A stretch of DNA of 64,000 bases, taken from Trinickia sp. (GTDB taxonomy: Bacteria; Pseudomonadota; Gammaproteobacteria; Burkholderiales; Burkholderiaceae). Both the position numbers and the translations under genes were made by a program. The stretch is from the NCBI RefSeq assembly GCF_051953405.1, contig NZ_JBQCIV010000136.1:1-64000 (forward strand). Reading direction: 5' to 3'. Under the pieces are notes generated by a model, which did not search any database, had not been told where the DNA came from, and worked only from the letters and a program-made list of their open reading frames with translations. Numbering within the stretch: the stretch's first letter is position 1; every line of letters begins with the position of its first letter. Below, piece after piece: positions 4,002 through 18,178 of the stretch.

Positions 4002-5360
4002 TCATGGTTCAAACTTGATCTTCGCTTGTTCAAGCATCCAAGCTTCAATTTTGTCGTGCCACGTACGTAACAGGTCGAGAGGGCGACGCCGGTAGTGTTT
4101 CTCAGCGATCGCGGATGGCTTATGCCCCTGGATTTGTGCGACGACACCTACCGGAACCTCGACCCACTCGGACAACGTTCCGAATGATCGGCGCAGACCA
4201 TGCAGTGAAATGTGCGGCAGCCCAGTCGGCCCTAGCGCTCGGTTGTGCGCGTGACGCGGTTCAGCAATTTTCCCGTCTGCTGCAGTCTTGCTGGTGAAGA
4301 CCCACTCGGACGGCTCCCACTGTTCGCCCCTTTGAGAGAGGCGGGCGGCTTGGCGCTTATTTGGGGGCATCTCGTTGAGACGTTGGAGAATCCGCAATAG
4401 GCTCGCCAAGTATGGAGTGAGCGGGATAGTTCGGCCGCCGGTGCCTTCAACCTTGTCGTTCATAGTCAAGCTTCGCCAGCGGAAGTCCACGTCTTCCCAA
4501 CGCAGTGCTGCTAGCTCTTCTCGACGGGCGCCGGTAATCAAGAGGCCTTGGAGATACGCGCTGATCACCGGATTGGCGATGCCACGTACCGCGCTGAACC
4601 AGACCGACAATTGCTCGCGCTGAAGACAGTCATCCTTCGCGGCGCTACGAGGGAGAATTCCTTTGACCTTTGGTGAAGCATAGGCTTCGTGCGGGATGAT
4701 GCTTGCATACGTCTCGTGAGTGTCACACCACCGGATGAACGCCTTGAAGAGACCGAACGCATGACCGGCATTCGTCGGCCCGCGAGGTATTTCGGCCTCG
4801 AGCCACTCGGACATGGATGCCGCGGTGATCTCGGTCAACTTGCGCGCCATGAGCGGAGCCAATGGGCCACGCACTTTTTCTTTGCCGCCGCGTTGTGCAA
4901 TCCCACCGCCGGGCGACGAGAGGTTGATATGGTCGAGGATGTATCGCTCAGACCGAGGCTTCTTTGTTTTCGGGGAAATTTTCGTCCGAAGGTGTTCAAG
5001 ATACTGTTCCCATGCTTCGCCGACTGTTACGTCCTGGCGCTTCTTGGCGGCCTGCCGTGCTTCGTGCGCCGCCTTCTGTTCGGCCTCACGCTCCCGTGGA
5101 TCGACGCCTTCGTCTATGAGCGTCTGGAGACTTCTCGCTCGCTCCTGCGCTTGATCGATGGTCCAGCTTCGTGGATCGCCAATGGTGATCCGCACTGTCG
5201 CGCCGTGAATTTTCCCTTGGAAGATGTACGCCTTGGCGCCTCCAGTAGTGGCGCGCAAACCAAGCCCCGGGGTCTTGCTGTCCCATAGGAACGACTGCGA
5301 CTTACCTTCGCTGCAGCGATGCCCTTCTACGCGAGCTGCCGTGAAATTTACCTTGGCCAT
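4002..5360 (-). CDS. second tyrosine recombinase/integrase (DUF4102-like N-terminus, different family from the first)
   Basis: FLWDSKTPGLGLRATTGGAKAYIFQ arm-type N-terminus; HGLRRSFGT...EKHYRRR catalytic region; GAGG SD upstream of ATG 5360. Confidence 0.85.
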   Translation of the reverse strand: MAKVNFTAARVEGHRCSEGKSQSFLWDSKTPGLGLRATTGGAKAYIFQGKIHGATVRITIGDPRSWTIDQAQERARSLQTLIDEGVDPREREAEQKAAHEARQAAKKRQDVTVGEAWEQYLEHLRTKISPKTKKPRSERYILDHINLSSPGGGIAQRGGKEKVRGPLAPLMARKLTEITAASMSEWLEAEIPRGPTNAGHAFGLFKAFIRWCDTHETYASIIPHEAYASPKVKGILPRSAAKDDCLQREQLSVWFSAVRGIANPVISAYLQGLLITGARREELAALRWEDVDFRWRSLTMNDKVEGTGGRTIPLTPYLASLLRILQRLNEMPPNKRQAARLSQRGEQWEPSEWVFTSKTAADGKIAEPRHAHNRALGPTGLPHISLHGLRRSFGTLSEWVEVPVGVVAQIQGHKPSAIAEKHYRRRPLDLLRTWHDKIEAWMLEQAKIKFEP

Positions 5361-5536
5361 CCAGCAACCTCATTCTTGGGTCTGCGATTCCGTGTAACCG
5401 CTGTGTAACCCGATTATGCGGCAGTGGAGGGATGTGGATCAACATCAATCGCGGGATGGATTGCGGATAGTCCTTCAAATACAATGACTTGATGAGGGCG
5501 ATCAAAGTCAATCTATCTCAAGAAATGTCGACTTGT

Positions 5537-5586
5537 TCGTATTCGCAATGCGAAGGTCGGGAGTTCGATCCTCCTCCGCTCCACCA
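5537..5586 (+). tRNA. partial tRNA-like sequence (anticodon stem-loop with loop TTCGCAA, variable loop AGGTC, T-arm GGGAG/TTCGATC/CTCCT, acceptor 3' strand CCGCTCC, discriminator A, CCA). The 5' acceptor strand is absent, so this is most likely a displaced tRNA 3' segment or att core
   Basis: Manual folding: anticodon stem TCGTA/TGCGA pairs, U33 and A37 present, T-arm canonical and ends in ACCA. No GGAGCGG acceptor partner upstream and the D-loop lacks GG. Confidence 0.5.
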
Positions 5587-5599
5587 ACGGGATTCGAAA

Positions 5600-5633
5600 G
5601 GGCTACAGGAAGGTTTTTCCTGTAGCCCTTTTT
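5600..5633 (+). terminator. rho-independent terminator (12-bp perfect stem GGGCTACAGGAA/TTCCTGTAGCCC, 5-nt loop, TTTTT tail) 14 nt after the tRNA-like CCA end
   Basis: Perfect inverted repeat followed by a T-run, read directly from the sequence. Confidence 0.8.
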
Positions 5634-5788
5634 CCTTGTGGGGGCCACGACTCGTTCGTTTTCGCAGGTAGGCTGCCCCGCCTGCCTCAGCCTCCGAAAC
5701 GCAGGTCATCGCACTCGGCTTCCCCGTGGTGAATCCGTCACGGAACTCCCCGAGGCGGAATGCGCCGCGAAGCGATCCGCTCTTCACC

Positions 5789-6088
5789 TCAATATTCCCC
5801 CGGCAACAGAATCGTGGTCGCGGAGCGATCCGATTCGGTGATTAGCCATACCGTCAGCGCCCCCGATAAGACGTAGCAGGACACGATGCGCCGATCGGTA
5901 GCTACGGAGCGTTCGTTCTGCTGGCGATCTGCCTCTGACAGGTCTCCCCAATCGCCGCGGACGTGTCGGCCCACCAGATCGTCGATGGAGATTCCGGTTC
6001 CCATTAGGGCATCGACAACAGCCGGGGTGGCGAAGATGCGGCCCGACGCAAAGCGAGGAAGCGGACGGGCGGTCGAAGCGAGACTCAT
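5789..6088 (-). CDS. conserved hypothetical small protein (about 99 aa; motifs GDWGDL and ITESDRSATTILLPGEY). Alternative upstream start at 6181
   Basis: GGAG SD 9 nt upstream of ATG 6088; coding-like codon usage. Family not recognised with certainty. Confidence 0.5.
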   Translation of the reverse strand: MSLASTARPLPRFASGRIFATPAVVDALMGTGISIDDLVGRHVRGDWGDLSEADRQQNERSVATDRRIVSCYVLSGALTVWLITESDRSATTILLPGEY

Positions 6089-6309
6089 GGTGGTTTTCTC
6101 CCAGGCGTGGTTAGCGCGGATTCCGACGGAGCCGGAAGCAAAGCCGTGGAGATGTTCTCGCGTAGCGGTCGGCGCGACCATTGACCGAACGGTCAGCGAA
6201 AAGGAGATGCGCTGCGCTTGCGTGGTGGAATTGTGTTGCGACTGTATTGCCCCGGCGCTGCTGGGGACCGCGCCTACACGGTTCCGGTTCGCCGCAGGGC
6301 GGCAGCGGC

Positions 6310-6384
6310 TTGAGTTAATGGTGGTTGAGGTTTACAATTGAGCTAATGTTTTGTGTTTTTGTAAACTCTTGCTGCGACCTCAAC
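6310..6384 (+). promoter_or_regulatory. sigma70-like promoter (TTGAGT-17-TACAAT) overlapped by nested inverted repeats (GGTTGAGGTTTACAA ... TTGTAAAC ... CCTCAAC), a putative autoregulatory operator of the Xre-ImmA gene
   Basis: Hexamers and inverted repeats read directly; lies 10-85 nt upstream of ATG 6395, which has a GAGGA SD. Confidence 0.4.
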
Positions 6385-6394
6385 GAGGACAACC

Positions 6395-7462
6395 ATGTTC
6401 AGCGTTCGACTTCACCGGGCCCGTAAGGCAGCTGGACTATCCCTGCGCGATCTGGGCGAACGCGTCGGCGTTTCCCATGCAGCCGTTAAGAAGTACGAGG
6501 ACGGCCTCGCTATGCCGTCCAGTGACGTTCTGCTGGGGCTATCGCGGGCGCTCAAGGTGCGTTCCGAATATTTCTTTCGCCCGGAACCCGTTGCGCTCGA
6601 GCGAATTGAATACCGCAAGCACAGCTCGTTGCCGAAGAAGCGGCTAGAAGCGATTACGCATGAAGTGATCGATCAAATCGAACGCCGCATCGAGCTGGAA
6701 AATCTCTTCCCTCAGTCGCCGGTGAAGGCTTTTGCTCCGGTTGATGGTTTGCCGGCGTGCATCGCCGCGTTGGAGCAGATCGAGGAAGTTGCCGAGCGTG
6801 TCCGCAATGCGTGGAACCTGGGCTTTCATCCGATTCCCGATCTAATCGACGCTCTCGAAACCAACGGTATCCGAGTTTTCATGATCGATGCGGACGGCGA
6901 GAACAAGTTCGATGGCCTTGCGGCGCGCGTGAATGGCATGCCGATTGTCGTCGTGGGTGGGCATTGGCCAGGGGATCGCCAGCGCTTCACGCTTGCGCAT
7001 GAACTTGGCCATTTGATGCTCGAGGGCCGTTTGCCGGCGGATATAGACGAGGAATTGGCTTGTAACCGTTTTGCAGGTGCTTTCCTGTTTCCGCGTGCTT
7101 CGGTACTTCAGGAGCTTGGACAGTTTCGAAATGCAATCGAACTGAAGGAACTCGGGCTACTGAAGGAGGAGTTCGGCCTATCGATGGGGGGGATCCTCTA
7201 CCGCGCCCGCGATCTCGGCGTCATATCGCCCGCCTACCGTGACGAGCAGGCCAAGCTTTTTCGCCTTAAGGGCTGGTATCAAAAGGAACCGGGGCGCGAG
7301 TTCCCACCGGAAAAGGCGCATCTGTTCGAGCAGTTGGTGTTTCACGCCCTGGCAGAGGAATACATCGGCGAATCGAAGGCCGCAGAACTCATGAATCTGT
7401 CTCTCGTGCAGTTCCGGCGTGTCCGCTCGATGGAGGGCGGCGATGCTGCTGTTGATCAGTGA
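6395..7462 (+). CDS. Xre-family HTH fused to an ImmA/IrrE (M78, COG2856) Zn-metallopeptidase domain
   Basis: N-terminal HTH (LSLRDLGERVGVSHAAVKKYEDG); HEXXH motif HELGHLML in the C-terminal domain. 355 aa. Confidence 0.85.
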   Translation: MFSVRLHRARKAAGLSLRDLGERVGVSHAAVKKYEDGLAMPSSDVLLGLSRALKVRSEYFFRPEPVALERIEYRKHSSLPKKRLEAITHEVIDQIERRIELENLFPQSPVKAFAPVDGLPACIAALEQIEEVAERVRNAWNLGFHPIPDLIDALETNGIRVFMIDADGENKFDGLAARVNGMPIVVVGGHWPGDRQRFTLAHELGHLMLEGRLPADIDEELACNRFAGAFLFPRASVLQELGQFRNAIELKELGLLKEEFGLSMGGILYRARDLGVISPAYRDEQAKLFRLKGWYQKEPGREFPPEKAHLFEQLVFHALAEEYIGESKAAELMNLSLVQFRRVRSMEGGDAAVDQ

Positions 7463-7946
7463 CGCGAACATTTTGATGGATGTGGAAGTGGGTGACCTCG
7501 TGGCGCCGATGTTCAGTCTCGGTTACCAGTTCGCGGTGCCCGACGTCCTGTATTACGAAGAGTTGGAGGAGCAGCACGCTCACTTGCTGGACATGGGTTT
7601 GCAACCTCGTTCGCTTTCGGCCAAGAGCGTTGAGCGGGTTCAGGCGTTGGCGCAGACGTATTCGAGACCGGGGCGTAATGACTTGTTCGCGCTCGCATTG
7701 GCGGAAGCCGAGGCATGCCCCTTGTTGACAGGCGATGCAGCGCTAAGGCAGGCCGCCGAGGCGGAGAAAGTCGAGGTTAAGGGTACGATTTGGCTCATCG
7801 GAGAGATGGTGAGGGAGCGACGCATCACGGTGGCGGTGGCCCGAGCTGCTCTGAATAAAATGCGTCTCAGAGGACGGCGATTGCCGTGGGACGCGGCTGA
7901 ACGAATGCTCGTGGCGCTTGATATGGCGCGGCCCCAAGGGGCTTGA
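7443..7946 (+). CDS. PIN-like DUF4411-family protein, overlapping the upstream Xre-ImmA gene by 20 nt
   Basis: MLLLISDANILMDVEVGDL PIN-like N-terminus; GGAGGG SD 5-6 nt upstream of ATG 7443; the ImmA plus DUF4411 pairing is a known conserved gene neighbourhood. Confidence 0.65.
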   Translation: MLLLISDANILMDVEVGDLVAPMFSLGYQFAVPDVLYYEELEEQHAHLLDMGLQPRSLSAKSVERVQALAQTYSRPGRNDLFALALAEAEACPLLTGDAALRQAAEAEKVEVKGTIWLIGEMVRERRITVAVARAALNKMRLRGRRLPWDAAERMLVALDMARPQGA

Positions 7947-8138
7947 AGAGGGAGAATGGCGAGGTTAGTCGAAATGGCAACGGATGTGCGTGCAGCCGAT
8001 GGCCTTGGTTAGGCGAATCGCCGGTACTTGCCGGATCGGAAACGGCGACATGAAATCAGTGTGAAACAGGCGAATCGCGCGTTCAGCGCGATAAAGAAAT
8101 AGCAAACGACAAATATAGATCGTGTTTAGGAACCCCCC

Positions 8139-10379
8139 ATGCAAAATGCAAACCACCAAAACCTAGTCGGATTCATCTGGAACATTGCCAATAAACTGCG
8201 CGGCCCGTACCGTCCGCCGCAGTACCGCCGCGTCATGTTGCCACTGATCGTTCTTCGTCGCTTCGACCTGGTGTTAGCCGAGAACAAGCAGAAGGTGCTG
8301 GACGAGAAGAAGCGTCTGGAAGCCAAGGGCATTACCGGCCATGCGTTGGAAAAAGCCCTCTCGCGTATCGCGGCTACGGGCCGCAAGCAGGAGCTATATA
8401 ACATCAGCGGCTTTACATTTGAAAAGCTGTTGGGCGACGCGCCTAACATCGCGGGCAACCTGATTTCCTACATTCGCGGCTTCTCGCCACGTGCTCGGGA
8501 CATTTTCGATAAGTTCGAATTTGAAACAGAAATCGCAAAGCTAGATGAAGCCAACCGCCTTTACCTGATCATCAAAGAGTTCTGCTCCGCGGACATCAAC
8601 CTCTCACCCAGGGTCATCAGCAATTTACAGATGGGCTACCTGTTTGAGGAACTGGTGCGCAAGTTTAACGAGCAAGCCAACGAAGAGGCCGGGGACCACT
8701 TCACACCGCGGGAAGTTATTCGCCTCATGGTGCAACTGCTGTTTACCGGCGAGGACGGCATCTATGAGAAGGGCATCTACCGCAGCGTGTACGATCCAAC
8801 TGCTGGCACGGGTGGCATGCTGTCCGAATCCGAAAAATTCATTTGTGGTGATGGCTTTACCACTGGGCTCAACCCAGACGCCAACATTGAACTGTTTGGC
8901 CAGGAATACAACCCGGAGTCTTATGCGATCTGTTGCTCTGACTTGCTGATCAAGGACGAGCCAATCAACAACCTGATTTACGGCGACACCCTCGGCATCA
9001 AGGACGCGAAAAACAAGACCAATGGCTTTGTGCCGCACGACGGACACCCGGACAAGAAATTCCACTACATGCTGGCCAACCCGCCGTTCGGCGTGGAGTG
9101 GAAGCCGGAAGAGGCCTTCGTGCGCGACGAATATGCAGATCAGGGCTTCTCTGGTCGCTTCGGCGCGGGGTTGCCCAGGATCAACGATGGCTCACTGCTC
9201 TTCCTGCAGCACATGATCTCGAAAATGCATCAGCCTCCCAAGTTGGTTGATGGAACGAACATGGGCGGTGACGGCTCGAAAATCGCCATTGTGTTTAACG
9301 GCTCTCCTCTGTTCACCGGCGATGCAGGATCAGGCGAGTCCAATATCCGTCGTTGGATTATTGAACGCGATATGCTCGATGCTGTCGTCGCTTTGCCGGA
9401 TCAGATGTTCTATAACACGGGCATCTACACCTATGTCTGGATCGTGACCAATAAGAAACCGATCCATCGCCGAGGTACGGTGCAACTGATCGACGGCACG
9501 CGCCATTTCAAAAAGATGGACAAGAGCCTAGGTAATAAGCGCAACGAGCTTTCTGATGAGCACATCAAAGAATTGGTGCGCCTATACGCCGAGCACCGAC
9601 ATGACGCCGTGAGCGATGCGCTAGCGGACGGCAAGCCCGAATCACGTGTTTGCAGCAAAATCTTCGAGAACCGGGACTTCGGCTACCTCAAGATCACGGT
9701 GGAGCGCCCCCTGCGTATGAACTTTCAGGCGAGCGCGGAGCGGATCGCTAAGCTGAATGATCAGGCTGCGTTCGTCAACCTAGCCAATAGCAAGAAGCGC
9801 AAGAGTGAAGCGGCTTATGCGGCCGAGGTTGCAGAGGGTAAAGAGACCCAAGCTGCCATTAAATCGGCCTTGGAGGGTATCGATGATGAAATGCTGTATC
9901 GCAACCGCCCTGAGTTCGAAGCGGAGATCGAACGAGCCCTGAAGCACGCGGGTCTTAAGGTGGCCGCTGCGGTCAAGAAGGCGATTCTGACGGCCCTGTC
10001 GGAGCGAGATCCAGGCGCCGAAATATGCTTGGATGCCAAAGGCAGGCCGGAGCCCGATCCTGAGCTGCGGGATACGGAAATCGTTGGCCTACCACAAGAT
10101 ATCGACCTGCCGCTGCCGTTGGGCTACGACAACGAAACCGGGCACGACAAGCTGTTGGCTCTGGTACGAGACCACTGTGAAGACTACCTGCGGGCCGAAG
10201 TCCTGCCGCACGTTGCGGATGCCTGGATCGATCATAGCAAGACCAAGGTTGGCTACGAAATCCCGCTCACGCGGCATTTCTACGTCTATGAGCCGCCGCG
10301 TCCGCTCGATGTGATAGCGGGCGAAATCAGTCAGTTGGAAAAAGAGATCATGGCCATGCTCAGTGAGGTGGTGCGATGA
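8139..10379 (+). CDS. hsdM: Type I restriction-modification DNA methyltransferase subunit HsdM (N6-adenine), long form of 746 aa
   Basis: NPPFG motif (MLANPPFGVEWKPEE); AdoMet-binding region; N-terminal HsdM domain; stop overlaps the hsdS start (ATGA). Confidence 0.95.
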   Translation: MQNANHQNLVGFIWNIANKLRGPYRPPQYRRVMLPLIVLRRFDLVLAENKQKVLDEKKRLEAKGITGHALEKALSRIAATGRKQELYNISGFTFEKLLGDAPNIAGNLISYIRGFSPRARDIFDKFEFETEIAKLDEANRLYLIIKEFCSADINLSPRVISNLQMGYLFEELVRKFNEQANEEAGDHFTPREVIRLMVQLLFTGEDGIYEKGIYRSVYDPTAGTGGMLSESEKFICGDGFTTGLNPDANIELFGQEYNPESYAICCSDLLIKDEPINNLIYGDTLGIKDAKNKTNGFVPHDGHPDKKFHYMLANPPFGVEWKPEEAFVRDEYADQGFSGRFGAGLPRINDGSLLFLQHMISKMHQPPKLVDGTNMGGDGSKIAIVFNGSPLFTGDAGSGESNIRRWIIERDMLDAVVALPDQMFYNTGIYTYVWIVTNKKPIHRRGTVQLIDGTRHFKKMDKSLGNKRNELSDEHIKELVRLYAEHRHDAVSDALADGKPESRVCSKIFENRDFGYLKITVERPLRMNFQASAERIAKLNDQAAFVNLANSKKRKSEAAYAAEVAEGKETQAAIKSALEGIDDEMLYRNRPEFEAEIERALKHAGLKVAAAVKKAILTALSERDPGAEICLDAKGRPEPDPELRDTEIVGLPQDIDLPLPLGYDNETGHDKLLALVRDHCEDYLRAEVLPHVADAWIDHSKTKVGYEIPLTRHFYVYEPPRPLDVIAGEISQLEKEIMAMLSEVVR

Positions 10380-11788
10380 GTCAACATCCTGCTTACCCGG
10401 AATATCAATTTACAGGATGCGATTGGTTTCCGGAAATCCCGTCACATTGGAAAATTGATCGGGCAAAATGGGCCATCTCTTCTTGTCAAAACGGTGTTTG
10501 GGGAACCGATCCGGATGGTGAGGACGACCTGGTTTGTGTTCGTGTTGCCGATTTCGATCGCCAGGCTCTACGTGTCTCCGCAGAAAAAGTTACGCTCCGG
10601 AGCATCGCAGAAAGAGAGAGCGCTGGCCGCTTGCTGCAAGCAGGCGATCTGCTGCTCGAAAAATCCGGGGGTGGTGAAAATCAATTGGTCGGGGCTGTTG
10701 TTGAATTCAATCAATCGTTTTCCGCTGTTACTTCAAATTTTGTTGCGAGATTGGCCGTTCGTGATGATGTAAACTCTCGTTTTCTCGTGTATGTGCATTC
10801 GCATCTGTATTCAGGGCGGGTCAATTTTAGATCAATTAAGCAAACGACAGGGATTCAAAATTTGGATGCCCGAGCGTATCTTGATGAGTTGATTGTATAT
10901 CCACCACTCTGTGAGCAAGACGCCATTGCTCGATTTCTTGATTTCAAAACGGCGCAAATCGATGCGCTGATCGCCAAGAAGAATGCGTTGCTAGCCAAGC
11001 TGGCAGAGAAGCGTATGGCGCTCATCAGCCATGTCGTCACCAAGGGGCTTGATCCGGCGACGCCGTTGGAAGAATCGGGGGTTGGCTGGTTGGGCGCGAT
11101 TCCTGTCGGCTGGACCACAAAGCGTATCCGATTCCTATTAACCATGAGCGGAGGGGTGACGCCAAGTACAGGTAACGCGGCGTACTGGGGCGGCGACATT
11201 CCGTGGATCACACCGAAAGATATGAAGCATGAGGCACTGTCAGGATCGATAGATACACTGACCGATGAGGCTATTAACGAAACAGGAATTACCCTACACC
11301 CATCAGGCCGGGTTTTGATTGTTGTCAGAGGAATGATCTTGGCGCATACTTTCCCTGTGGCTACGAATCTTGTGTCCGCAACAGTGAATCAAGATATGAA
11401 GGTTTTGAATACAGATATGAATAATCAATATTTGGCGTTGTTGCTGAAAGGGATTCAGCCGATCATTCTGAGTCTTGTGGAGGAGTCGGCGCATGGCACG
11501 AAGGTGCTGCGCACAGATGTTTTCAAAAATATCTATCTTCCTGTTCCCCCGGATAATGTTCAGGCGGAAATTGTAGGCCAAGTGCATCGTTGGCTGGCGG
11601 GGCTAGATGCTCAAGTTCGCAGTGTTGAATCAGTAATTGATCGTCTTCGAGAGTATCGTTCGGCGATAATAAGTAACGCTGTTACTGGAAAAATAGATGT
11701 TCGTGACTTTTTATTTCCTATGTCAAAAGACGTTAAGGGCGCGAGACGGGAGTGTCGGGATAGCCGAACCACTGAAGCGATTAACTGA
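10376..11788 (+). CDS. hsdS: Type I R-M specificity subunit HsdS (two target-recognition domains)
   Basis: Typical HsdS architecture with a central conserved coiled region (AQIDALIAKKNALLAKLAEKRMALISHVVTKGLDP) and visibly AT-richer TRD regions; translationally coupled to hsdM. Confidence 0.9.
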   Translation: MSQHPAYPEYQFTGCDWFPEIPSHWKIDRAKWAISSCQNGVWGTDPDGEDDLVCVRVADFDRQALRVSAEKVTLRSIAERESAGRLLQAGDLLLEKSGGGENQLVGAVVEFNQSFSAVTSNFVARLAVRDDVNSRFLVYVHSHLYSGRVNFRSIKQTTGIQNLDARAYLDELIVYPPLCEQDAIARFLDFKTAQIDALIAKKNALLAKLAEKRMALISHVVTKGLDPATPLEESGVGWLGAIPVGWTTKRIRFLLTMSGGVTPSTGNAAYWGGDIPWITPKDMKHEALSGSIDTLTDEAINETGITLHPSGRVLIVVRGMILAHTFPVATNLVSATVNQDMKVLNTDMNNQYLALLLKGIQPIILSLVEESAHGTKVLRTDVFKNIYLPVPPDNVQAEIVGQVHRWLAGLDAQVRSVESVIDRLREYRSAIISNAVTGKIDVRDFLFPMSKDVKGARRECRDSRTTEAIN

Positions 11789-11796
11789 ACGGCCGA

Positions 11797-14700
11797 ATGC
11801 CACGCATTGAGAGGGCGAGAAAAGTGCACAAAGAAATCGACTTCGAAAACGGCATGGAGGACGCGCTCGTCAGTATTGGCGGCTACGAGCAACGTGACTC
11901 GAACGGCTACGATCTGGAAACCGCGTTGTTCCCGGCTGATGTAGTCGCCTTTGTACAAAAAACGCAACCCAAAATCTGGAGCCGCCTGACTCAACTGGAT
12001 GCCGCCAAAGCATCCGCCATGCTGCTGGACAGCTTGGTGAAGGAGCTTGCTGCCAAGGGGGCGCTCGCGATTTTGCGTGAGGGTTTCAAGTGCGTGGGCA
12101 AGACGGTGCGGCTGGCTTACTTCGCGCCGAACACCGGGTTGGACCCGACAAGTACCGAACGGTACGGCGACAACCGCCTGATCATCGTACGACAGGTGAA
12201 GACGAAGAGCGGAGCCATCCCCGACGTAGTCTTGGCCATAAATGGATTGCCGATAGCGACGCTGGAGCTAAAGAACCCGATGTCGGCGACGCGCTGGAAC
12301 GTGGAGCACGCTAAACACCAGTACAAGTTCGAGCGAGATCCGAAGGAGTTGTTGTTCGCCTTCAAGCAGCGCTGCCTTGTGCACTTCGCGGTGGATACCG
12401 AGCAGGTCGCAATGACCACCAAGCTGGAGGGCAAGGACACCGTTTTCCTGCCGTTCAACCTCGGGCACAACCACGGGGCAGGTAATCCACCCGCGGCGGG
12501 TGATGTACGCACCACCTACCTTTGGAATAAGGTGCTAACCCGCGACAGTTTGATGGACATCCTGGCGCGCTTTATCCATTTGAATGTCGAGGAGAAGACT
12601 GTCGTCACCGAGAAGGGCATCAAGCGCCACCGCAAGGAGACAATGATTTTCCCGCGCTACCATCAACTCGATGCGGTGCGCGCGCTGACCGATCACGCCC
12701 AAGTACACGGTTCGGGTCACAACTACCTCATCCAGCATTCCGCCGGATCAGGGAAATCAAACTCGATCGCTTGGCTTGCGCACCGACTGTCGAGTCTGCA
12801 CGACGCTAACAACGAAAAGATCTTTCATTCCGTGGTGGTGATTACCGATCGGCGCGTGCTAGACCAGCAATTGCAAAACACCATCTTCCAGTTCGAGCAT
12901 AAGCTGGGCGTTGTGCAGAAGATCGATGAAAATACGCAACAATTGGCCAAGGCGTTGGCCAATGGCGTGCCGATCATCATCTCGACCATTCAGAAATTTC
13001 CGTTTATCACCCAGGCCATCCGAACAATGGAAGCCAACGGCAGGGGTGTCGCCATCTCGACCGCAGGCAAGCGCTTCGCCGTGATTGTGGATGAGGCCCA
13101 CAGTTCACAAAGTGGCGAAACCGCCATGGAGCTACGCAAGATTTTGAACAAGGACGGCATCGAATCTGCCATCGCCGAGCAGTTGCTCGACATAGACGAC
13201 GACGCTTTGAGCGACGAAGCAAAGAAGGAACTATTGCGCGAACAACTCAAGCGTGCCAAGCAGCCGAACTTGAGCTTCTTCGCCTTTACCGCAACACCAA
13301 AGTTCAAGACGCTGGCTGTCTTCAATGAACCGGGCCCCGATGGCAAAGCGCCGTTCCACCAGTACAGCATGCGCCAGGCCATTGAAGAAGGATTCATCCT
13401 TGATGTATTGGCGCACTACACCTGCTACAAGCGCTATTACCGGTTGATCCAGACGGCGGAGGCAGATCCCGAAGTGCCACGCCGGAAAGCTGCACGCGCT
13501 CTTGCTCGATTCGTTGAGTTTCACGACTACGAGATTGCCCAGAAGGTCGAGGTGATTGTCGAACATTTTCGCACTCATACCCGGCATAAGATCGGCGGAC
13601 GAGCCAAAGCTATGGTCGTGACGGGTTCGCGTGAGCACGCCGTGCGATACAAGCTCGGGTTCGACAAGTACCTCAAGGATAAGGGTTATACCGACGTGAA
13701 ATCGTTGGTCGCGTTTTCGGGCGAGATTACGCTTAAGGAGTTCGCCGACAAAAAATTCACCGAAGTAAGCATGAACAACGGCATCAAAGAATCCGAGCTA
13801 CCGGAAAAGTTCAACACTGAGGAGTATCAGGTTCTGCTTGTGGCCGAGAAATACCAGACTGGCTTTGACCAGCCGCTGTTGCACAGCATGTACGTCGACA
13901 AGCGTCTCGCTGGAATTCAGGCCGTGCAGACCCTGTCACGCTTGAACCGCACTACCCGCGGCAAGAACGACACCTTCGTACTCGACTTCGTCAACGAGCC
14001 TGGCGACATCCACACTGCGTTCAAGCCATACTACGAGGCGACGGATAAAGGGGACGACACTGATCCGCAGCAACTCAATACGCTGGAGCATTTGCTGGCA
14101 GGATGGAAGGTATTCACGCGTGAGGAAGTCGATGCCTGGTGCGAAATATGGTTCCGTAATCGCCTAAACCCGACGGGCGGCGAACATAAGAAGCTAAATG
14201 GCCTGCTTGACTTGGCGGTCGAGCGTTTCGCACAATTGGAAGAAGAGGATCAAAACCTCTTCAAAGGGCAACTGGTCAGCTTTCGCAATCTCTACGCCTT
14301 TGTCTCGCAAATCGTGCCGTACCAGGACTCGGATCACGAGAAGCTATACACCTACGCTCGCTTCCTCCTGACTAAGCTGCCGCGCACGACGGACAACCAG
14401 ACAGTCCAAGTCGACGATGAGGTTGAGCTTAAGTATTACCGGCTACAGAAGATCAGCGAGGGGGGCATCGACTTGAAAGCCGGTGAGGCTGACGAGTTGG
14501 GAGGGCCGACCGAGGTCGGTACCGGCCAAGCTGACGAAGAGGTTCAGCTTTCGACGTTGGTGGGCAGGCTCAATGAGCGCTTCGGCACAGAGTTCACCCC
14601 TGCGGATCAACTCTTTTTTGATCAGGTTCGTGAGACGGCCGTCGCCAATGAGCATTTGCGACATGCGGTCATGGCCAACAGCATCGAAAACTTCGAGCCT

Positions 14701-14856
14701 GTGTTCAACAAACAGCTCGAAAACCTGTTCATTGAGCGTATGGACGGCAACGAAGAAATCTTCATACGCCTGATGAACGATGAGGCGTTCAGGAATATCG
14801 CTGCCAGTCACCTCATGCGAGCCGTGTATAGTCAGATCAAGTCCGCTGGCGGCTGA
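11797..14856 (+). CDS. hsdR: Type I restriction enzyme endonuclease/helicase subunit HsdR
   Basis: SF2 helicase motifs (SGSGKSNS Walker A; VIVDEAHSSQ DEAH box); 1019 aa; directly follows hsdS. Confidence 0.95.
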   Translation: MPRIERARKVHKEIDFENGMEDALVSIGGYEQRDSNGYDLETALFPADVVAFVQKTQPKIWSRLTQLDAAKASAMLLDSLVKELAAKGALAILREGFKCVGKTVRLAYFAPNTGLDPTSTERYGDNRLIIVRQVKTKSGAIPDVVLAINGLPIATLELKNPMSATRWNVEHAKHQYKFERDPKELLFAFKQRCLVHFAVDTEQVAMTTKLEGKDTVFLPFNLGHNHGAGNPPAAGDVRTTYLWNKVLTRDSLMDILARFIHLNVEEKTVVTEKGIKRHRKETMIFPRYHQLDAVRALTDHAQVHGSGHNYLIQHSAGSGKSNSIAWLAHRLSSLHDANNEKIFHSVVVITDRRVLDQQLQNTIFQFEHKLGVVQKIDENTQQLAKALANGVPIIISTIQKFPFITQAIRTMEANGRGVAISTAGKRFAVIVDEAHSSQSGETAMELRKILNKDGIESAIAEQLLDIDDDALSDEAKKELLREQLKRAKQPNLSFFAFTATPKFKTLAVFNEPGPDGKAPFHQYSMRQAIEEGFILDVLAHYTCYKRYYRLIQTAEADPEVPRRKAARALARFVEFHDYEIAQKVEVIVEHFRTHTRHKIGGRAKAMVVTGSREHAVRYKLGFDKYLKDKGYTDVKSLVAFSGEITLKEFADKKFTEVSMNNGIKESELPEKFNTEEYQVLLVAEKYQTGFDQPLLHSMYVDKRLAGIQAVQTLSRLNRTTRGKNDTFVLDFVNEPGDIHTAFKPYYEATDKGDDTDPQQLNTLEHLLAGWKVFTREEVDAWCEIWFRNRLNPTGGEHKKLNGLLDLAVERFAQLEEEDQNLFKGQLVSFRNLYAFVSQIVPYQDSDHEKLYTYARFLLTKLPRTTDNQTVQVDDEVELKYYRLQKISEGGIDLKAGEADELGGPTEVGTGQADEEVQLSTLVGRLNERFGTEFTPADQLFFDQVRETAVANEHLRHAVMANSIENFEPVFNKQLENLFIERMDGNEEIFIRLMNDEAFRNIAASHLMRAVYSQIKSAGG

Positions 14857-14942
14857 TCTGGCATCGGGTGCGTTGACAGCCCTGCAGCAATGCCCGGAAG
14901 CGCGAACTACGGTCCGCGCCCCATGAGGTTTCGATGTCTCGG

Positions 14943-15884
14943 CTACAGTGCATCACCTTCGAAGTAGTCGGAGTCGATCTTCTTGATATAAAAAGTGCTA
15001 ACGGCCGAAACGCCGACATTGTGGTCCACCATCAACTGCACGAGTTGTTCCCCATCGACGAGGATGATCTTTGACGCAATGATGCCGGCGTATTCCTTCG
15101 CTTCCCGAGTGAACGAGGAGGTCGTAATAAAGACCCCCTTGTTGGCTCGTTGTCCCTGCAGCGCCCCGGCGAACTTCTGAATTTCAGGCCGGCCGACAGG
15201 TCCTTCCCACTTTTTTGCTTGCACGTAGATAACGTCCAGGCCCAGCTTGTCTTCCTTGATAGTGCCGTCGATTCCGCCGTCCCCGCTGCGCCCAATGACG
15301 CTCCCCGCGTCCTGCCGTGATCCGCCGTACCCCATCGCCACCAATAGGTCGATAACCAACCTTTCGAAGAAGCCAGGCGTAGAAGCCTTAACTTGATCCA
15401 GCAACTCGGTCTCCAGCCCATTCCGCAGCCGCTGGTACGCTTGCGCGAAGGACTCTTCCGGCGTTGCTTCATCGACCTCGCATAAAGGCAGCGCTCCCGG
15501 CGGCGAAGTCGAAACCTCACCGGCTTGTCCCTCATTGTTTCTCTTTCGCCGAAATGCGATGAACTCCGGATATTGCTCAAGAGTACCGTTGTCGATTCGG
15601 GCGGGGTGTTGCGCAAGTAAGGCGTTACCACGCTCGGTGATGTTGAAGTAGCCTCGCTTCCGCGATTCGACAACGCCAGCTTGTTTCAGGTACGTTCGCG
15701 CCCACCCCACCCTATTGTCGAATACCGGTGCTGTGCCACTCGGGAGAAGCGTGTTCCGCTCTTCGTCGGTAAGCTCACATTCGTCGGCGAGCGTATCGAC
15801 AACGCTGCGAAATCGATGTTCTTGTCCGTCGCCGACAGCACGCAATACGGGGAGCATCAGGGTTTGGTAGTCCGGGATCGGCAT
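14943..15884 (-). CDS. mrr: Mrr-family Type IV (modification-dependent) restriction endonuclease
   Basis: N-terminal winged-helix MPIPDYQTLMLPVLRAV plus C-terminal Mrr_cat PD-(D/E)xK region (GDGGIDG...VQAKKW). Confidence 0.9.
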   Translation of the reverse strand: MPIPDYQTLMLPVLRAVGDGQEHRFRSVVDTLADECELTDEERNTLLPSGTAPVFDNRVGWARTYLKQAGVVESRKRGYFNITERGNALLAQHPARIDNGTLEQYPEFIAFRRKRNNEGQAGEVSTSPPGALPLCEVDEATPEESFAQAYQRLRNGLETELLDQVKASTPGFFERLVIDLLVAMGYGGSRQDAGSVIGRSGDGGIDGTIKEDKLGLDVIYVQAKKWEGPVGRPEIQKFAGALQGQRANKGVFITTSSFTREAKEYAGIIASKIILVDGEQLVQLMVDHNVGVSAVSTFYIKKIDSDYFEGDAL

Positions 15885-16231: not shown

Positions 16232-18178
16232 ATGGCAAAGATCGCCCCGCTCATGAATACGAACATGAACATCACACACGCCCCGCGAACAGCAACCGAT
16301 CCCCGACAAACCCTAGCGCTATCGCTCGCTGCGCTAGGTATTGTCTTCGGCGACCTAGGCACGAGCCCCTTGTACGCGCTACAGGCGTCGTTCAGCGGCG
16401 CACTCGGCGTGGCCCCGACGCCCGCCAACGTAATCGGCGTCGTCTCGCTCTTCATATGGTCGCTAATCCTAATGGTCAGCATCAAATACGTGCTTGTGCT
16501 GATGCAGGCAGACAACCGCGGCGAGGGCGGACTGTTAGCGCTATTGGCACTGTTGGTAGGCGAGCGCAGCGGGCGCGTCACCCGGCCGGGCGCCTTGCGC
16601 TGGGTGTTCTTGGCGATATTCGGCACAGCGATGCTCTACGGCGACGGCATCATCACCCCCGCCATTTCGGTGTTGAGCGCGATCGAGGGGATCGAGGTGG
16701 CGACGCCCGCTTTTGCGCACTACACCGTGCCGATCACCGTGGCCATCCTAGTCGTGCTGTTTGCGGTGCAGTCCCTGGGCTCCGGCCGCGTAGGTGTCGC
16801 CTTCGGCCCGATTCTCGCCGTGTGGTTTGTAGCGATCTTCACGCTCGGCCTCACGTCGCTCGTCAAAACGCCGGCCATCTTAGCTGCGTTCAACCCGATC
16901 AACGGTATCGCATTCTTCGCTCACAACGGCTTCAAAGGTTTCGTCGCGCTGGGCGCCGTGGTGCTATGTCTCACCGGCGGGGAGGCGCTTTACGCCGATA
17001 TGGGGCACTTCGGTGCGCGGCCGATTCGCCTCGCTTGGTACGGCTTGGCATTGCCGGCCCTGGCTGTCAACTACCTCGGGCAAGGCGCATTGATTCTGCG
17101 CGATGCGCATGCGGCGGCCCGCCCGTTCTACACGGGCGTGCCTTCCTGGGGCCTGTATCCGATGGTGGTTCTGGCCACGTTGGCAACGATCGTTGCATCG
17201 CAGGCCTTGATTTCCGCCGTGTTCTCGCTGACGCGGCAGGCGGCGCAATTGGGTCTTTCTCCTCGCGTGGCGGTCAAGCACACATCGTCCAGCACAGCCG
17301 GACAGATTTATTTACCCGGTCTGAACTGGGTACTGATGGCCGGTACCATCGCCGTGGTGCTGGGGTTCCGTACCTCGGACAGCCTCGCATCGGCTTTCGG
17401 GATCGCGGTTTCGACGACGATGGCGATCACCACCATGCTGTACGCCGCCTATGCGCGTGTGCGTCTCATGTGGCCGCTGTGGCGAATCGCGTTGGTCGCC
17501 GGGGTGTTCATGATCGTCGACCTGGCTTTCGTCGGGGCGAACGCCATGAAGTTTGCGGACGGCGGTTGGCTGCCCCTCACCATCGGCGGTATCACCTTCT
17601 TGATGTCGACGTCCTGGCTCCTTGGGCTGCGCGCCTTGCAACGCGCACGCAAGGACTCGGGCCTGCCGCTGGGCATGTTTATCTCGAGCATTGCCGCCGC
17701 GCCTCCACACCGCGTGAGCGGCACGGGCGTGTTTCTGATGGCGGCGGGAAACTCGGTGCCGATCACCTTGTTGCATCATCTGAAGCACAACCAGGTGCTC
17801 CACGAGCAGGTGGTTCTGCTGACGTTGCTGACCGAGGAAATCCCGCGCGTCGCTCCCGCGGAGCGATTCAAGGTGGAGCGTCTCGATCAGGGTTTTGTAC
17901 GGATCGTGGGGCGCTATGGGTACATGGAGATGCTCGATGTGCCGCAACTGCTCGAGCAAGCTTTGCCGAGTGCGAACTGTCCCTGCTATGACGCGATGAT
18001 GACCACGTTCTACCTGGGGCGCGAGTCGCTCGCGGTGCAGACGAAGCAGGGCCCCCTACGGCATATCCTCTTGAGTCTTTTTACCCGGCTGCGGAAGAAC
18101 GAGTTGGACGCGACCGCGCATCTGGGCTTGCCGCCGAATCGCGTGGTCGAGATGGGGGCGCGGCTCGATCTCGTCTAG
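16232..18178 (+). CDS. kup: KUP/HAK/KT family potassium uptake protein
   Basis: IVFGDLGTSPLYALQ N-terminal signature; 12 TM segments plus cytoplasmic C-terminal domain. Confidence 0.9.
   Translation: MAKIAPLMNTNMNITHAPRTATDPRQTLALSLAALGIVFGDLGTSPLYALQASFSGALGVAPTPANVIGVVSLFIWSLILMVSIKYVLVLMQADNRGEGGLLALLALLVGERSGRVTRPGALRWVFLAIFGTAMLYGDGIITPAISVLSAIEGIEVATPAFAHYTVPITVAILVVLFAVQSLGSGRVGVAFGPILAVWFVAIFTLGLTSLVKTPAILAAFNPINGIAFFAHNGFKGFVALGAVVLCLTGGEALYADMGHFGARPIRLAWYGLALPALAVNYLGQGALILRDAHAAARPFYTGVPSWGLYPMVVLATLATIVASQALISAVFSLTRQAAQLGLSPRVAVKHTSSSTAGQIYLPGLNWVLMAGTIAVVLGFRTSDSLASAFGIAVSTTMAITTMLYAAYARVRLMWPLWRIALVAGVFMIVDLAFVGANAMKFADGGWLPLTIGGITFLMSTSWLLGLRALQRARKDSGLPLGMFISSIAAAPPHRVSGTGVFLMAAGNSVPITLLHHLKHNQVLHEQVVLLTLLTEEIPRVAPAERFKVERLDQGFVRIVGRYGYMEMLDVPQLLEQALPSANCPCYDAMMTTFYLGRESLAVQTKQGPLRHILLSLFTRLRKNELDATAHLGLPPNRVVEMGARLDLV

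Follow-up and report, generated by a model that had tools for sequence, protein, structure and literature searches.

What role do two overlapping genes, A and B, play at the head of a Type I restriction-modification (R-M) operon in Trinickia sp.? The genes lie in a stretch of 64,000 nucleotides (nt), hereafter the window (contig NZ_JBQCIV010000136.1, positions 1 to 64,000), where gene A encodes an Xre helix-turn-helix (HTH) domain fused to an M78/ImmA Zn-peptidase and gene B encodes a PIN-fold protein. From a comparison of the pair with its relatives, we lean slightly towards reading A and B as a toxin-antitoxin module of the Rosmer type, one that would at the same time act as a regulated 5' leader for hsdMSR. 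The features that bear on this reading are as follows.

6310..6338, + strand: predicted sigma-70-like promoter of the pair (-35 TTGAGT at 6310-6315, 17-nt spacer, -10 TACAAT at 6333-6338)
6324..6384, no strand assigned: putative operator, with inner and outer inverted repeats
6395..7462, + strand: gene A, 355 amino acids (aa), Xre HTH + M78/ImmA Zn-peptidase fusion
7432..7437, + strand: Shine-Dalgarno sequence GGAGGG preceding gene B, located within the 3' end of gene A and 5 nt before ATG 7443, read from the sequence
7443..7946, + strand: gene B (167 aa, counted from the ATG), a COG2405/DUF3368 family member with a PIN fold
7947..8138, + strand: spacer between gene B and hsdM, 192 nt
8139..10379, + strand: hsdM, Type I methyltransferase subunit (Pfam HsdM_N, N6_Mtase)
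10376..11788, + strand: hsdS, specificity subunit (Pfam Methylase_S)
11797..14856, + strand: hsdR, restriction and translocase subunit (Pfam HSDR_N, SWI2_SNF2, ResIII, T1R_D3-like)

Genes A and B are closely linked. They overlap by 20 nt in the window, and the gene boundaries proposed in an earlier, sequence-only reading of this DNA (6395-7462 and 7443-7946, with a GGAGGG Shine-Dalgarno sequence) were borne out by the sequence and by the starts of homologues. The mechanical open reading frame (ORF) of gene B opens at GTG 7419; we took ATG 7443 as the start because all homologues begin MLLLISDANIL. Among 24 species-level genome loci, selected by gene B relatives 72-88% identical, a gene A relative lies directly upstream with a 17-20 nt overlap wherever upstream room exists. 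The pairing is also kept in 78 metagenome loci (51-91% identity), in IMG/VR contigs and in plasmid copies at 39-56% identity, and the only exceptions are contig edges or fragments. In the Alpha-, Beta-, Gamma- and Epsilonproteobacteria it spans identities between 99% and 50%, and it reaches 39% in a cyanobacterial plasmid. Both genes have hundreds of homologues at 50-99% identity, which indicates that they are real; 471 relatives were found in one metagenome scan, and 618 protein clusters at 50% identity (E <= 1e-10). The pair can also stand alone, as it does between modABC and mnmE in Pseudomonadales metagenome-assembled genomes (MAGs) and, in a form ~53% identical, between the gpA and portal/terminase genes of P2-like prophages (L049-L052, ~4945-6480; loci carry L numbers throughout). 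The latter site is one that we take to be a known hotspot for defense cargo in P2-like phages. Such stand-alone occurrence points to a self-sufficient module that has been combined repeatedly with different defense cargo.

The first of the two proteins resembles a known class of antitoxins. Pfam placed HTH_3 at aa 6-60 of gene A (E 1.8e-11) and Peptidase_M78 at aa 157-271 (E 1.1e-14), as expected from the earlier proposal of an Xre HTH fused to an M78 domain with a HELGH motif; the overall layout is an Xre HTH (aa 1-62), an M78 peptidase (~aa 126-275) and then a helical C-terminal region of ~100 aa. The HELGH motif occupies aa 202-206 (nt 6998-7012), and residues H202, E203, H206 and E220 are invariant among 41 homologues. 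Gene A matched 14 PADLOC models of RmrA, the best at 5e-48 over aa 4-337. RmrA is the antitoxin of RosmerTA, a defense system of the toxin-antitoxin kind with a Zn-peptidase in its antitoxin (Millman et al. 2022). Other matches were to the PADLOC models capP (2.5e-13, aa 128-274 only) and capH (7e-12, aa 3-96 only), to the NCBIfam spr1629 antitoxin model (2e-28, under the model's cut-off) and to phrog_2439 in PHROGs (2e-65). In an AlphaFold2 model, the HTH was predicted with a pLDDT (predicted local distance difference test score) above 90, and its fold matched those of P22 C2, ImmR, CapH, C.AhdI and C.BclI. The fold search returned matches to the HTH only, because the peptidase and C-terminal parts were modeled at low confidence; a sequence search of the PDB likewise found relatives among HTH domains only, and no GAF-sized domain was seen in the model. 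Homology thus places gene A in the RmrA class, with its HExxH...E site intact, as a putative RmrA-like antitoxin and repressor.

Gene B had been called a "PIN-like DUF4411" protein, and only half of this description holds. PF14367 (DUF4411) gave no match even at E <= 10, which rules that family out. The PIN assignment, however, is supported by Pfam (PIN, E 6e-4; DUF3368 at aa 112-156, just under the cut-off with 27.1 bits against 27.3) and by an AlphaFold model (pLDDT 89.7) that Foldseek matched, with probability 1.0, to the PIN structures VapC, FitB, HARP and SSO1118 (2mdt). Every close homologue of gene B carries PF11848 in precomputed annotation. Residues D7, D13, D34, D80 and D98 are kept in 90-99% of 115 family representatives (37-70% identity), and D7, D13, E40, D80, D98 and E108 are invariant among close homologues. 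Gene B had no PADLOC match at E <= 0.01, RmrT models included (the only near match was PDC-S70, E 0.019), no match in NCBIfam, PHROGs or the GenBank phage collection and no relative by PDB sequence search; IMG/VR did yield prophage contexts, and Pfam found no ATPase domain. These sequence and model comparisons assign gene B to the COG2405/DUF3368 family: its product is VapC-like, has a PIN fold, keeps the acidic residues and is presumably an RNase toxin.

The pattern of damage to the two genes is consistent with such a toxin. The gene B frame is interrupted in ~11 of ~125 loci and the gene A frame, twice as long, in only 1-2; selective interruption of this kind is expected for a toxic gene beside a partner that is still needed. 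Premature stops or frameshifts in the PIN frame with an intact gene A occur in L004, L011, L017, L020, L023, L074/L075, L106 and L121/L122, and some of these may be MAG assembly errors.

If the pair acts as a leader, the genes behind it should be informative. We counted 16 informative species-level genome loci and ~62 informative metagenome loci. In the genome loci, the gene directly downstream and co-oriented was hsdM of a Type I R-M system in three (L001, L003, L007), a SMODS gene of a cyclic-oligonucleotide-based antiphage signaling system (CBASS), followed by a ~185-aa effector, in three (L004, L009, L019), cas3-cse1 of CRISPR-Cas type I-E in one (L006) and zorABCD (EH_Signature, SNF2-Mrr) in one (L014). 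The metagenome loci held Type I R-M in 22 cases, CBASS in 7 (one of type II, with ThiF), csy1-csy2 in 3, ThsB in 2, and GmrSD, a DNA methylase, an SNF2 helicase and Fic in 1 each; ~10 had a co-oriented gene of no known kind, and 13 had nothing co-oriented. Type I R-M, represented by at least five of its lineages, is thus the commonest gene set behind the pair, and the association holds at 44-99% identity. On IncC-type plasmids of V. cholerae and Shewanella the pair is followed by hsdM-hsdS-fic-hsdR, on a Salinivibrio plasmid by hsdR-AAA-hsdM-hsdS, and on B. pseudomallei-like and Ralstonia contigs by a co-oriented hsdM that begins 9-15 nt after the PIN stop; on a Sulfuricurvum plasmid the pair stands between hsdS and hsdR, with the PIN stop overlapping the hsdR start. 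The HsdM proteins behind the pair are only 22-35% identical to that of the window, which indicates that the associations are independent or ancient and do not represent one element copied. At 75-88% identity, the pair heads CBASS, CRISPR-Cas, Zorya, GmrSD or ThsB, or stands alone. Altogether, the same cassette is found at the head of at least eight kinds of defense system; the neighborhood survey shows it recurrently before hsdM and also before other defense genes.

The spacing of these genes is tight. In relatives, SMODS, csy1 and hsdR are found with starts that overlap the end of the PIN gene by 4 nt, and hsdM with a gap of 9-20 nt, distances that imply co-transcription. It would follow from this spacing that the promoter of the pair transcribes A, B and the defense operon behind them, here hsdM-hsdS-hsdR.

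Upstream of gene A, the predicted promoter coincides with a candidate operator. An inner inverted repeat, GGTTTACAA (6329-6337) and TTGTAAAC (6359-6366), overlaps the -10 element and forms the palindrome GGTTTACAA-N21-TTGTAAAC (6329-6366); an outer repeat is formed by GTTGAGGT (6324-6331) and ACCTCAAC (6377-6384). The palindrome occurs once in the window, where 0 copies are expected by chance, and no second operator copy was found before hsdM or elsewhere in the 64 kb. In ~20 other loci, too, gene A is preceded by a CTTGA-N17-TACAAT promoter combined with GGTTTACAA...TTGTAAACC, and promoter and palindrome together are kept in ~30 loci, with a half-site that differs as the protein diverges: it reads GGTTTATA...TATAAACC in relatives from Vibrio, Shewanella and Salinivibrio. 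Sulfuricurvum has two copies. Because the window holds one copy of the palindrome and none before hsdM, we infer that gene A autorepresses one single promoter. A direct, separate control of hsdM by gene A is unsupported, there being no operator copy before hsdM. The conserved candidate operator offers an immediately testable handle.

These findings suggest how the pair might work. Dimers of the gene A protein would bind GGTTTACAA-N21-TTGTAAAC over the -10 element and repress the promoter at 6310-6338, as phylogenetic footprinting indicates, and this promoter, to judge from gene spacing in relatives, would drive A, B and hsdM-hsdS-hsdR. By analogy with RosmerTA and RipAB, gene A would also neutralize gene B. 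A stress or infection signal, most plausibly single-stranded DNA (ssDNA) or DNA damage, would activate the peptidase, as in CapH/CapP, ImmR/ImmA and DdrO/IrrE; the activated peptidase would then remove or destroy the HTH repressor, derepressing the operon and freeing the RNase. The expected outcome is more restriction enzyme, with RNA-cleaving growth arrest as a backup. The sequence-only reading had suggested both a toxin-antitoxin or abortive-infection module and a proteolytic switch over the R-M genes. The former is supported by homology, namely the full-length RmrA match of gene A, and the latter gains comparative support from the position of the pair as a co-oriented 5' leader of non-orthologous Type I R-M and other systems, from the tight gaps and from the sole operator before gene A.

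The spacer between gene B and hsdM is best understood as a relic. It aligns with the first ~80 codons of the long, 826-835-aa HsdM of L038 and L040, which starts 9-15 nt after the PIN stop in those loci; the junction reads 'MARLVEMATDVRAADGLG*...DRKRRHEISVKQANR' in the window and 'MANIEMAMKMSADSG...SESGDMKSRAEKANR' in L038. No terminator and no promoter were predicted in 7947-8138, and its folding is unexceptional (z = +0.5). Because it aligns with the 5' end of a long hsdM yet contains in-frame stops, the spacer is a decayed N-terminal extension of hsdM rather than a dedicated regulatory region. The hsdM of the window is accordingly shortened at its N-terminus and has an AGGAA ribosome-binding site of its own. 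Read-through from the gene A promoter into hsdMSR would then be the simplest expectation.

Similar relics are present elsewhere. In several loci, truncated hsdM 5' ends (ATGGCCAAC...AACGGCAACGGC...) lie right after the PIN stop:

L002, 10505-10730: truncated hsdM 5' end, with a SLATT_4-like ORF ~340 nt downstream
L005, 10505-10560: truncated hsdM 5' end, then unrelated DNA
L016, 10505-10600: truncated hsdM 5' end, then unrelated DNA
L006, 10520-10580: truncated hsdM 5' end, before cas3
L058, 5505-5620: truncated hsdM 5' end, before ThsB

From the persistence of these fragments, it seems that in this clade the pair was followed by hsdM first and that the cargo is swapped through recombination immediately behind the pair. 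A broader reading, which we hold only tentatively and at somewhat less than an even chance, is that the pair is a portable leader cassette that responds to a signal: one autorepressed promoter under a self-cleaving HTH-peptidase would drive any defense operon standing downstream, be it Type I R-M, CBASS, CRISPR-Cas, Zorya, GmrSD or Thoeris; the PIN RNase would serve as a suicide backup, and the conserved sequence would act as a recombination anchor for cargo exchange.

Several points weigh against a module that doubles as a regulated leader. About one third of the loci have no co-oriented defense gene behind the pair, and regulation of cargo therefore cannot be its sole function. In L014, the 193-nt gap before the Zorya genes holds a TTGACA-like element, so some cargo may have its own promoter. 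In the window itself, the gap before hsdM is 192 nt, compared with 9-20 nt in relatives, and an unrecognized promoter within this spacer is possible. The metagenome loci are partly redundant, and the counts come without a background rate for other toxin-antitoxin families. We infer that B is toxic and that A neutralizes it, binds DNA and cleaves itself, and we infer the trigger as well; the weakest of these steps is the proposed ssDNA trigger, because a GAF domain is missing from gene A and the model of its C-terminal 100 residues is of low confidence. Finally, defense-finder tools would probably not call the pair RosmerTA, because gene B lacks a PADLOC RmrT match.

Could the pair instead be a purely autonomous Rosmer-type module, whether toxin-antitoxin, abortive-infection or selfish addiction, that exerts no control over hsdMSR and owes its position to defense-island clustering and repeated recombination at a conserved sequence? 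That the pair is found by itself among housekeeping genes and in the cargo site of P2-like prophages agrees with this idea, as do the hsdM remnants in L002, L005, L016, L006 and L058, since cargo swapping alone would give varied neighbors. Toxin-antitoxin modules are also known to cluster with R-M systems (Matelska et al. 2017). Base composition is consistent as well: GC content is 0.58-0.59 across the pair (6000-8000), 0.50-0.56 across hsdMSR (8000-15000) and 0.62 in the kup gene at 16232, and because of these shifts we conclude that the defense block is a mosaic of different origins. Clustering, however, does not account for the uniform orientation, for SMODS, csy1 and hsdR starting 4 nt within the end of gene B or for hsdM lying just 9-20 nt away. 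Spacing this tight argues that the cargo is co-transcribed from an A-controlled promoter, whatever the origin of the arrangement, and no terminator is predicted after gene B in the window. We consider a purely autonomous module unlikely, though not strongly so.

The remaining explanations reassign the role of gene B. In one of these, gene A would be a fused CapH-CapP-type regulator of the defense operon, and gene B a non-toxic accessory RNase or an inactive PIN partner acting, for example, in mRNA processing or peptidase modulation. The capP and capH matches of gene A (2.5e-13 and 7e-12) fit this proposal, fused CapH-CapP forms are reported from 15 CBASS systems and a set of DISARM systems (defense island system associated with restriction-modification), including one that stands beside a vapC-like gene upstream of DISARM, and COG2405 PINs have been described with a variable number (2-5) of conserved acidic residues (Matelska et al. 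2017). In the family of gene B, however, five acidic positions are kept in 90-99% of the 115 members, and disruptions fall mainly on the B frame and leave A whole, a pattern that a toxic gene would be expected to show. Moreover, RmrA-class proteins are experimentally antitoxins, and the RmrA models fit far better (5e-48 versus 1e-13) and cover the whole protein, which makes a mere regulator with a harmless partner improbable. More improbable still is a guard of the Type I enzyme resembling PrrC or RloC, in which the PIN RNase would lie latent in the R-M complex until released by a phage anti-restriction protein. In favor of such a guard, the link to Type I R-M is strong and of long standing (44-99% identity), and the Sulfuricurvum pair even lies inside the operon, between hsdS and hsdR. 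PrrC cleaves tRNA. VapC-type PINs cleave tRNA or rRNA (Ernits et al. 2023). Nevertheless, PrrC and RloC are systems of an ABC-ATPase with a nuclease tied to Type I R-M, whereas gene B has no ATPase, already has a dedicated partner in gene A and, with it, occurs at 75-88% identity beside CBASS, CRISPR-Cas, Zorya, GmrSD or ThsB, or alone, which argues against any dependence on Hsd proteins.

With a Rosmer-type module that is also a leader as the preferred reading, we compared the pair with systems already described. RosmerTA is the closest. Its antitoxin likewise consists of an N-terminal Xre HTH and an M78/ImmA Zn-peptidase, and gene A matches RmrA over its full length; both form bicistronic operons with an adjacent toxin gene, both are found in defense islands and prophages, and the toxin partner of RosmerTA varies, with PIN-like toxins noted among the partners. 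Deletion mutants of rmrA were not obtained, possibly because of toxicity (Millman et al. 2022). ImmA/HTH antitoxins form a hub that pairs with many toxins, PIN-like ones included, and the RmrTA toxin of Gordonia phage Kita depolarizes the membrane (Ernits et al. 2023). A further Rosmer member is RipAB of S. pneumoniae (spr1630/spr1629), in which RipB neutralizes RipA in trans and RipA targets DnaN. Unlike these systems, the pair has a COG2405/DUF3368 PIN that belongs to no catalogued RmrT family, its gene order in the window is antitoxin first, and a leader position before other defense operons was not found described in the RosmerTA literature that we searched.

In its regulatory half, the pair recalls CapH/CapP, ImmR/ImmA and DdrO/IrrE, each of which combines an HTH repressor with an M78 metallopeptidase. 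CapP cleaves CapH on ssDNA and thereby derepresses immune operons (Lau et al. 2022; Calloji et al. 2026), and in CapP and IrrE the groove that senses ssDNA lies between peptidase and GAF domain. Like CapH/CapP, the pair keeps company with diverse immune systems, namely Type I R-M, types I and II of CBASS, types I-E and I-F of CRISPR-Cas, Zorya, GmrSD, ThsB and an SNF2 helicase. CapH/CapP have a palindromic operator in the promoter, and the conserved palindrome over the -10 element of the pair is a candidate for one. CapH and CapP, however, are usually two proteins encoded divergently from the operon (Lau et al. 2022), whereas the pair has one fused, co-directional protein; CapP has the order peptidase-HTH-GAF, whereas gene A has the order HTH-peptidase-short helical tail and no GAF domain; the PADLOC fit of gene A to capP and capH is partial only; and the systems of Lau et al. 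2022 have no toxin gene.

The gene combination itself has been anticipated. COG2856/DUF955, Xre and PIN genes were predicted to form three-component toxin-antitoxin systems (Makarova et al. 2009; Matelska et al. 2017), which is exactly the combination in the window; Matelska et al. (2017) named COG2405 as one of the PIN families that are transcribed together with HTH and DUF955, and also pointed out PIN toxin-antitoxin modules linked to Type I R-M. These were bioinformatic predictions, and the operator, the strict pairing, the range of cargo and the remnants of swapped cargo were not reported there. COG2405 PINs of the VapBC type share the toxin family, with a PIN fold and, probably, the DUF3368 C-terminal helices, and differ in their antitoxin, which is UPF0175 (exclusive to COG2405 contexts; Matelska et al. 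2017) in place of the HTH-M78 fusion. VapKSC and CapK+CapS (EMBO J 2026) offer a parallel of another kind: CapK/CapS are DNA-damage-sensing regulators of adjacent immune operons with a toxin-antitoxin counterpart built on a VapC-like PIN toxin. They consist, however, of a GHKL kinase and a STAS protein, unrelated to the HTH-peptidase, and keep regulator and toxin-antitoxin separate, whereas the pair in the window may do both jobs. The HTH fold of gene A also resembles the R-M controller proteins C.AhdI and C.BclI. Those controllers are small, HTH-only proteins that act on a Type II R gene via C-boxes, unlike the 355-aa gene A protein with its peptidase and Type I neighbor.

What, then, is new about this pair? 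The earlier statement that no mechanism had been shown is outdated: RosmerTA has been named and validated, the CapH/CapP mechanism has been worked out, and the pairing of COG2405 with HTH-DUF955 has been described (Matelska et al. 2017). Homology to the named system RosmerTA, an outcome set beforehand as counting against the claim, likewise reduces the novelty first attached to the pair. Taken together, the homologies identify the pair as a member of the Rosmer toxin-antitoxin family with a putative PIN toxin of a type not yet catalogued or characterized; the gene combination was already predicted bioinformatically, and the pair is not categorically new. The literature that we searched contained no experimental characterization of a PIN-type Rosmer module, nor did it describe a systematic co-transcribed leader role, a conserved operator or remnants of cargo swapping. 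The usual view is that Type I R-M systems are regulated chiefly at the post-translational level. A 2025 EcoSal review of R-M biology makes no mention of an Xre, ImmA or peptidase regulator. If the proposed leader role is true, many Type I operons would gain, through the repressor-protease that heads them, a transcriptional layer of control, possibly responsive to damage or infection. The emerging set of "controllers of adjacent pathways", with CapW/BrxR, CapH/CapP and CapK/CapS, would then be joined by a fused and co-transcribed form with a toxin of its own.

The wider surroundings agree with the earlier placement of the pair between a tRNA fragment with a terminator and hsdM, and Pfam confirmed hsdM, hsdS, hsdR and mrr. 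The flanking features are:

4002-5360, - strand: tyrosine integrase (Phage_integrase, Arm-DNA-bind_3), adjoining the tRNA-/tmRNA-like fragment
5559..5586, + strand: tRNA-/tmRNA-like 3' end, whose sequence ends CTCCACCA, at the left edge of the defense block
5596..5633, + strand: intrinsic terminator, a strong hairpin (folding z = -4.7) with a T-run
14943..15884, - strand: mrr, Type IV restriction endonuclease (Pfam Mrr_N, Mrr_cat), convergent with the operon and at the end of the defense block

The window contains no intact tRNA or tmRNA anywhere in its 64 kb; the fragment at 5559-5586 occurs once, with no second att-like copy, and an Rfam scan of 5300-8200 gave a chance-level match only. Divergent from the pair lies an ORF of 130 aa (5789-6181, - strand, probably with an internal Met start) that had no match in Pfam, NCBIfam, PADLOC or PHROGs. 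We ruled it out as a third component, given that it lacks a family match and has no homologue beside the pair in L001-L024.

Some relatives of the pair carry additional genes. In L018, a second HTH-M78 paralogue (6354-7304), 26% identical to gene A, lies 1.6 kb upstream of the pair. In L093 and L094 (5483-7959), the PIN stop comes 4 nt after the start of csy1-csy2 (type I-F Cascade genes), and L107 has a truncated csy1-like ORF (5549-6607) that starts 62 nt after the PIN stop; neither cas1 nor cas2-3 stands between the pair and csy1 in these three loci. Fic genes or genes for AAA_13 or other AAA ATPases lie inside pair-headed Type I operons in L043 (10366-11367), L045 (9440-10441), L007 (14141-16432) and L046 (8813-10609), with Fic between hsdS and hsdR, and operons with such embedded genes stack several accessory effectors. 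Finally, in the plasmids of Shewanella (L045, 4146-4739) and Salinivibrio (L046, 4183-4773), a short tyrosine recombinase of ~197 aa is encoded directly upstream of the pair in the same orientation, where it may mobilize or invert the cassette.

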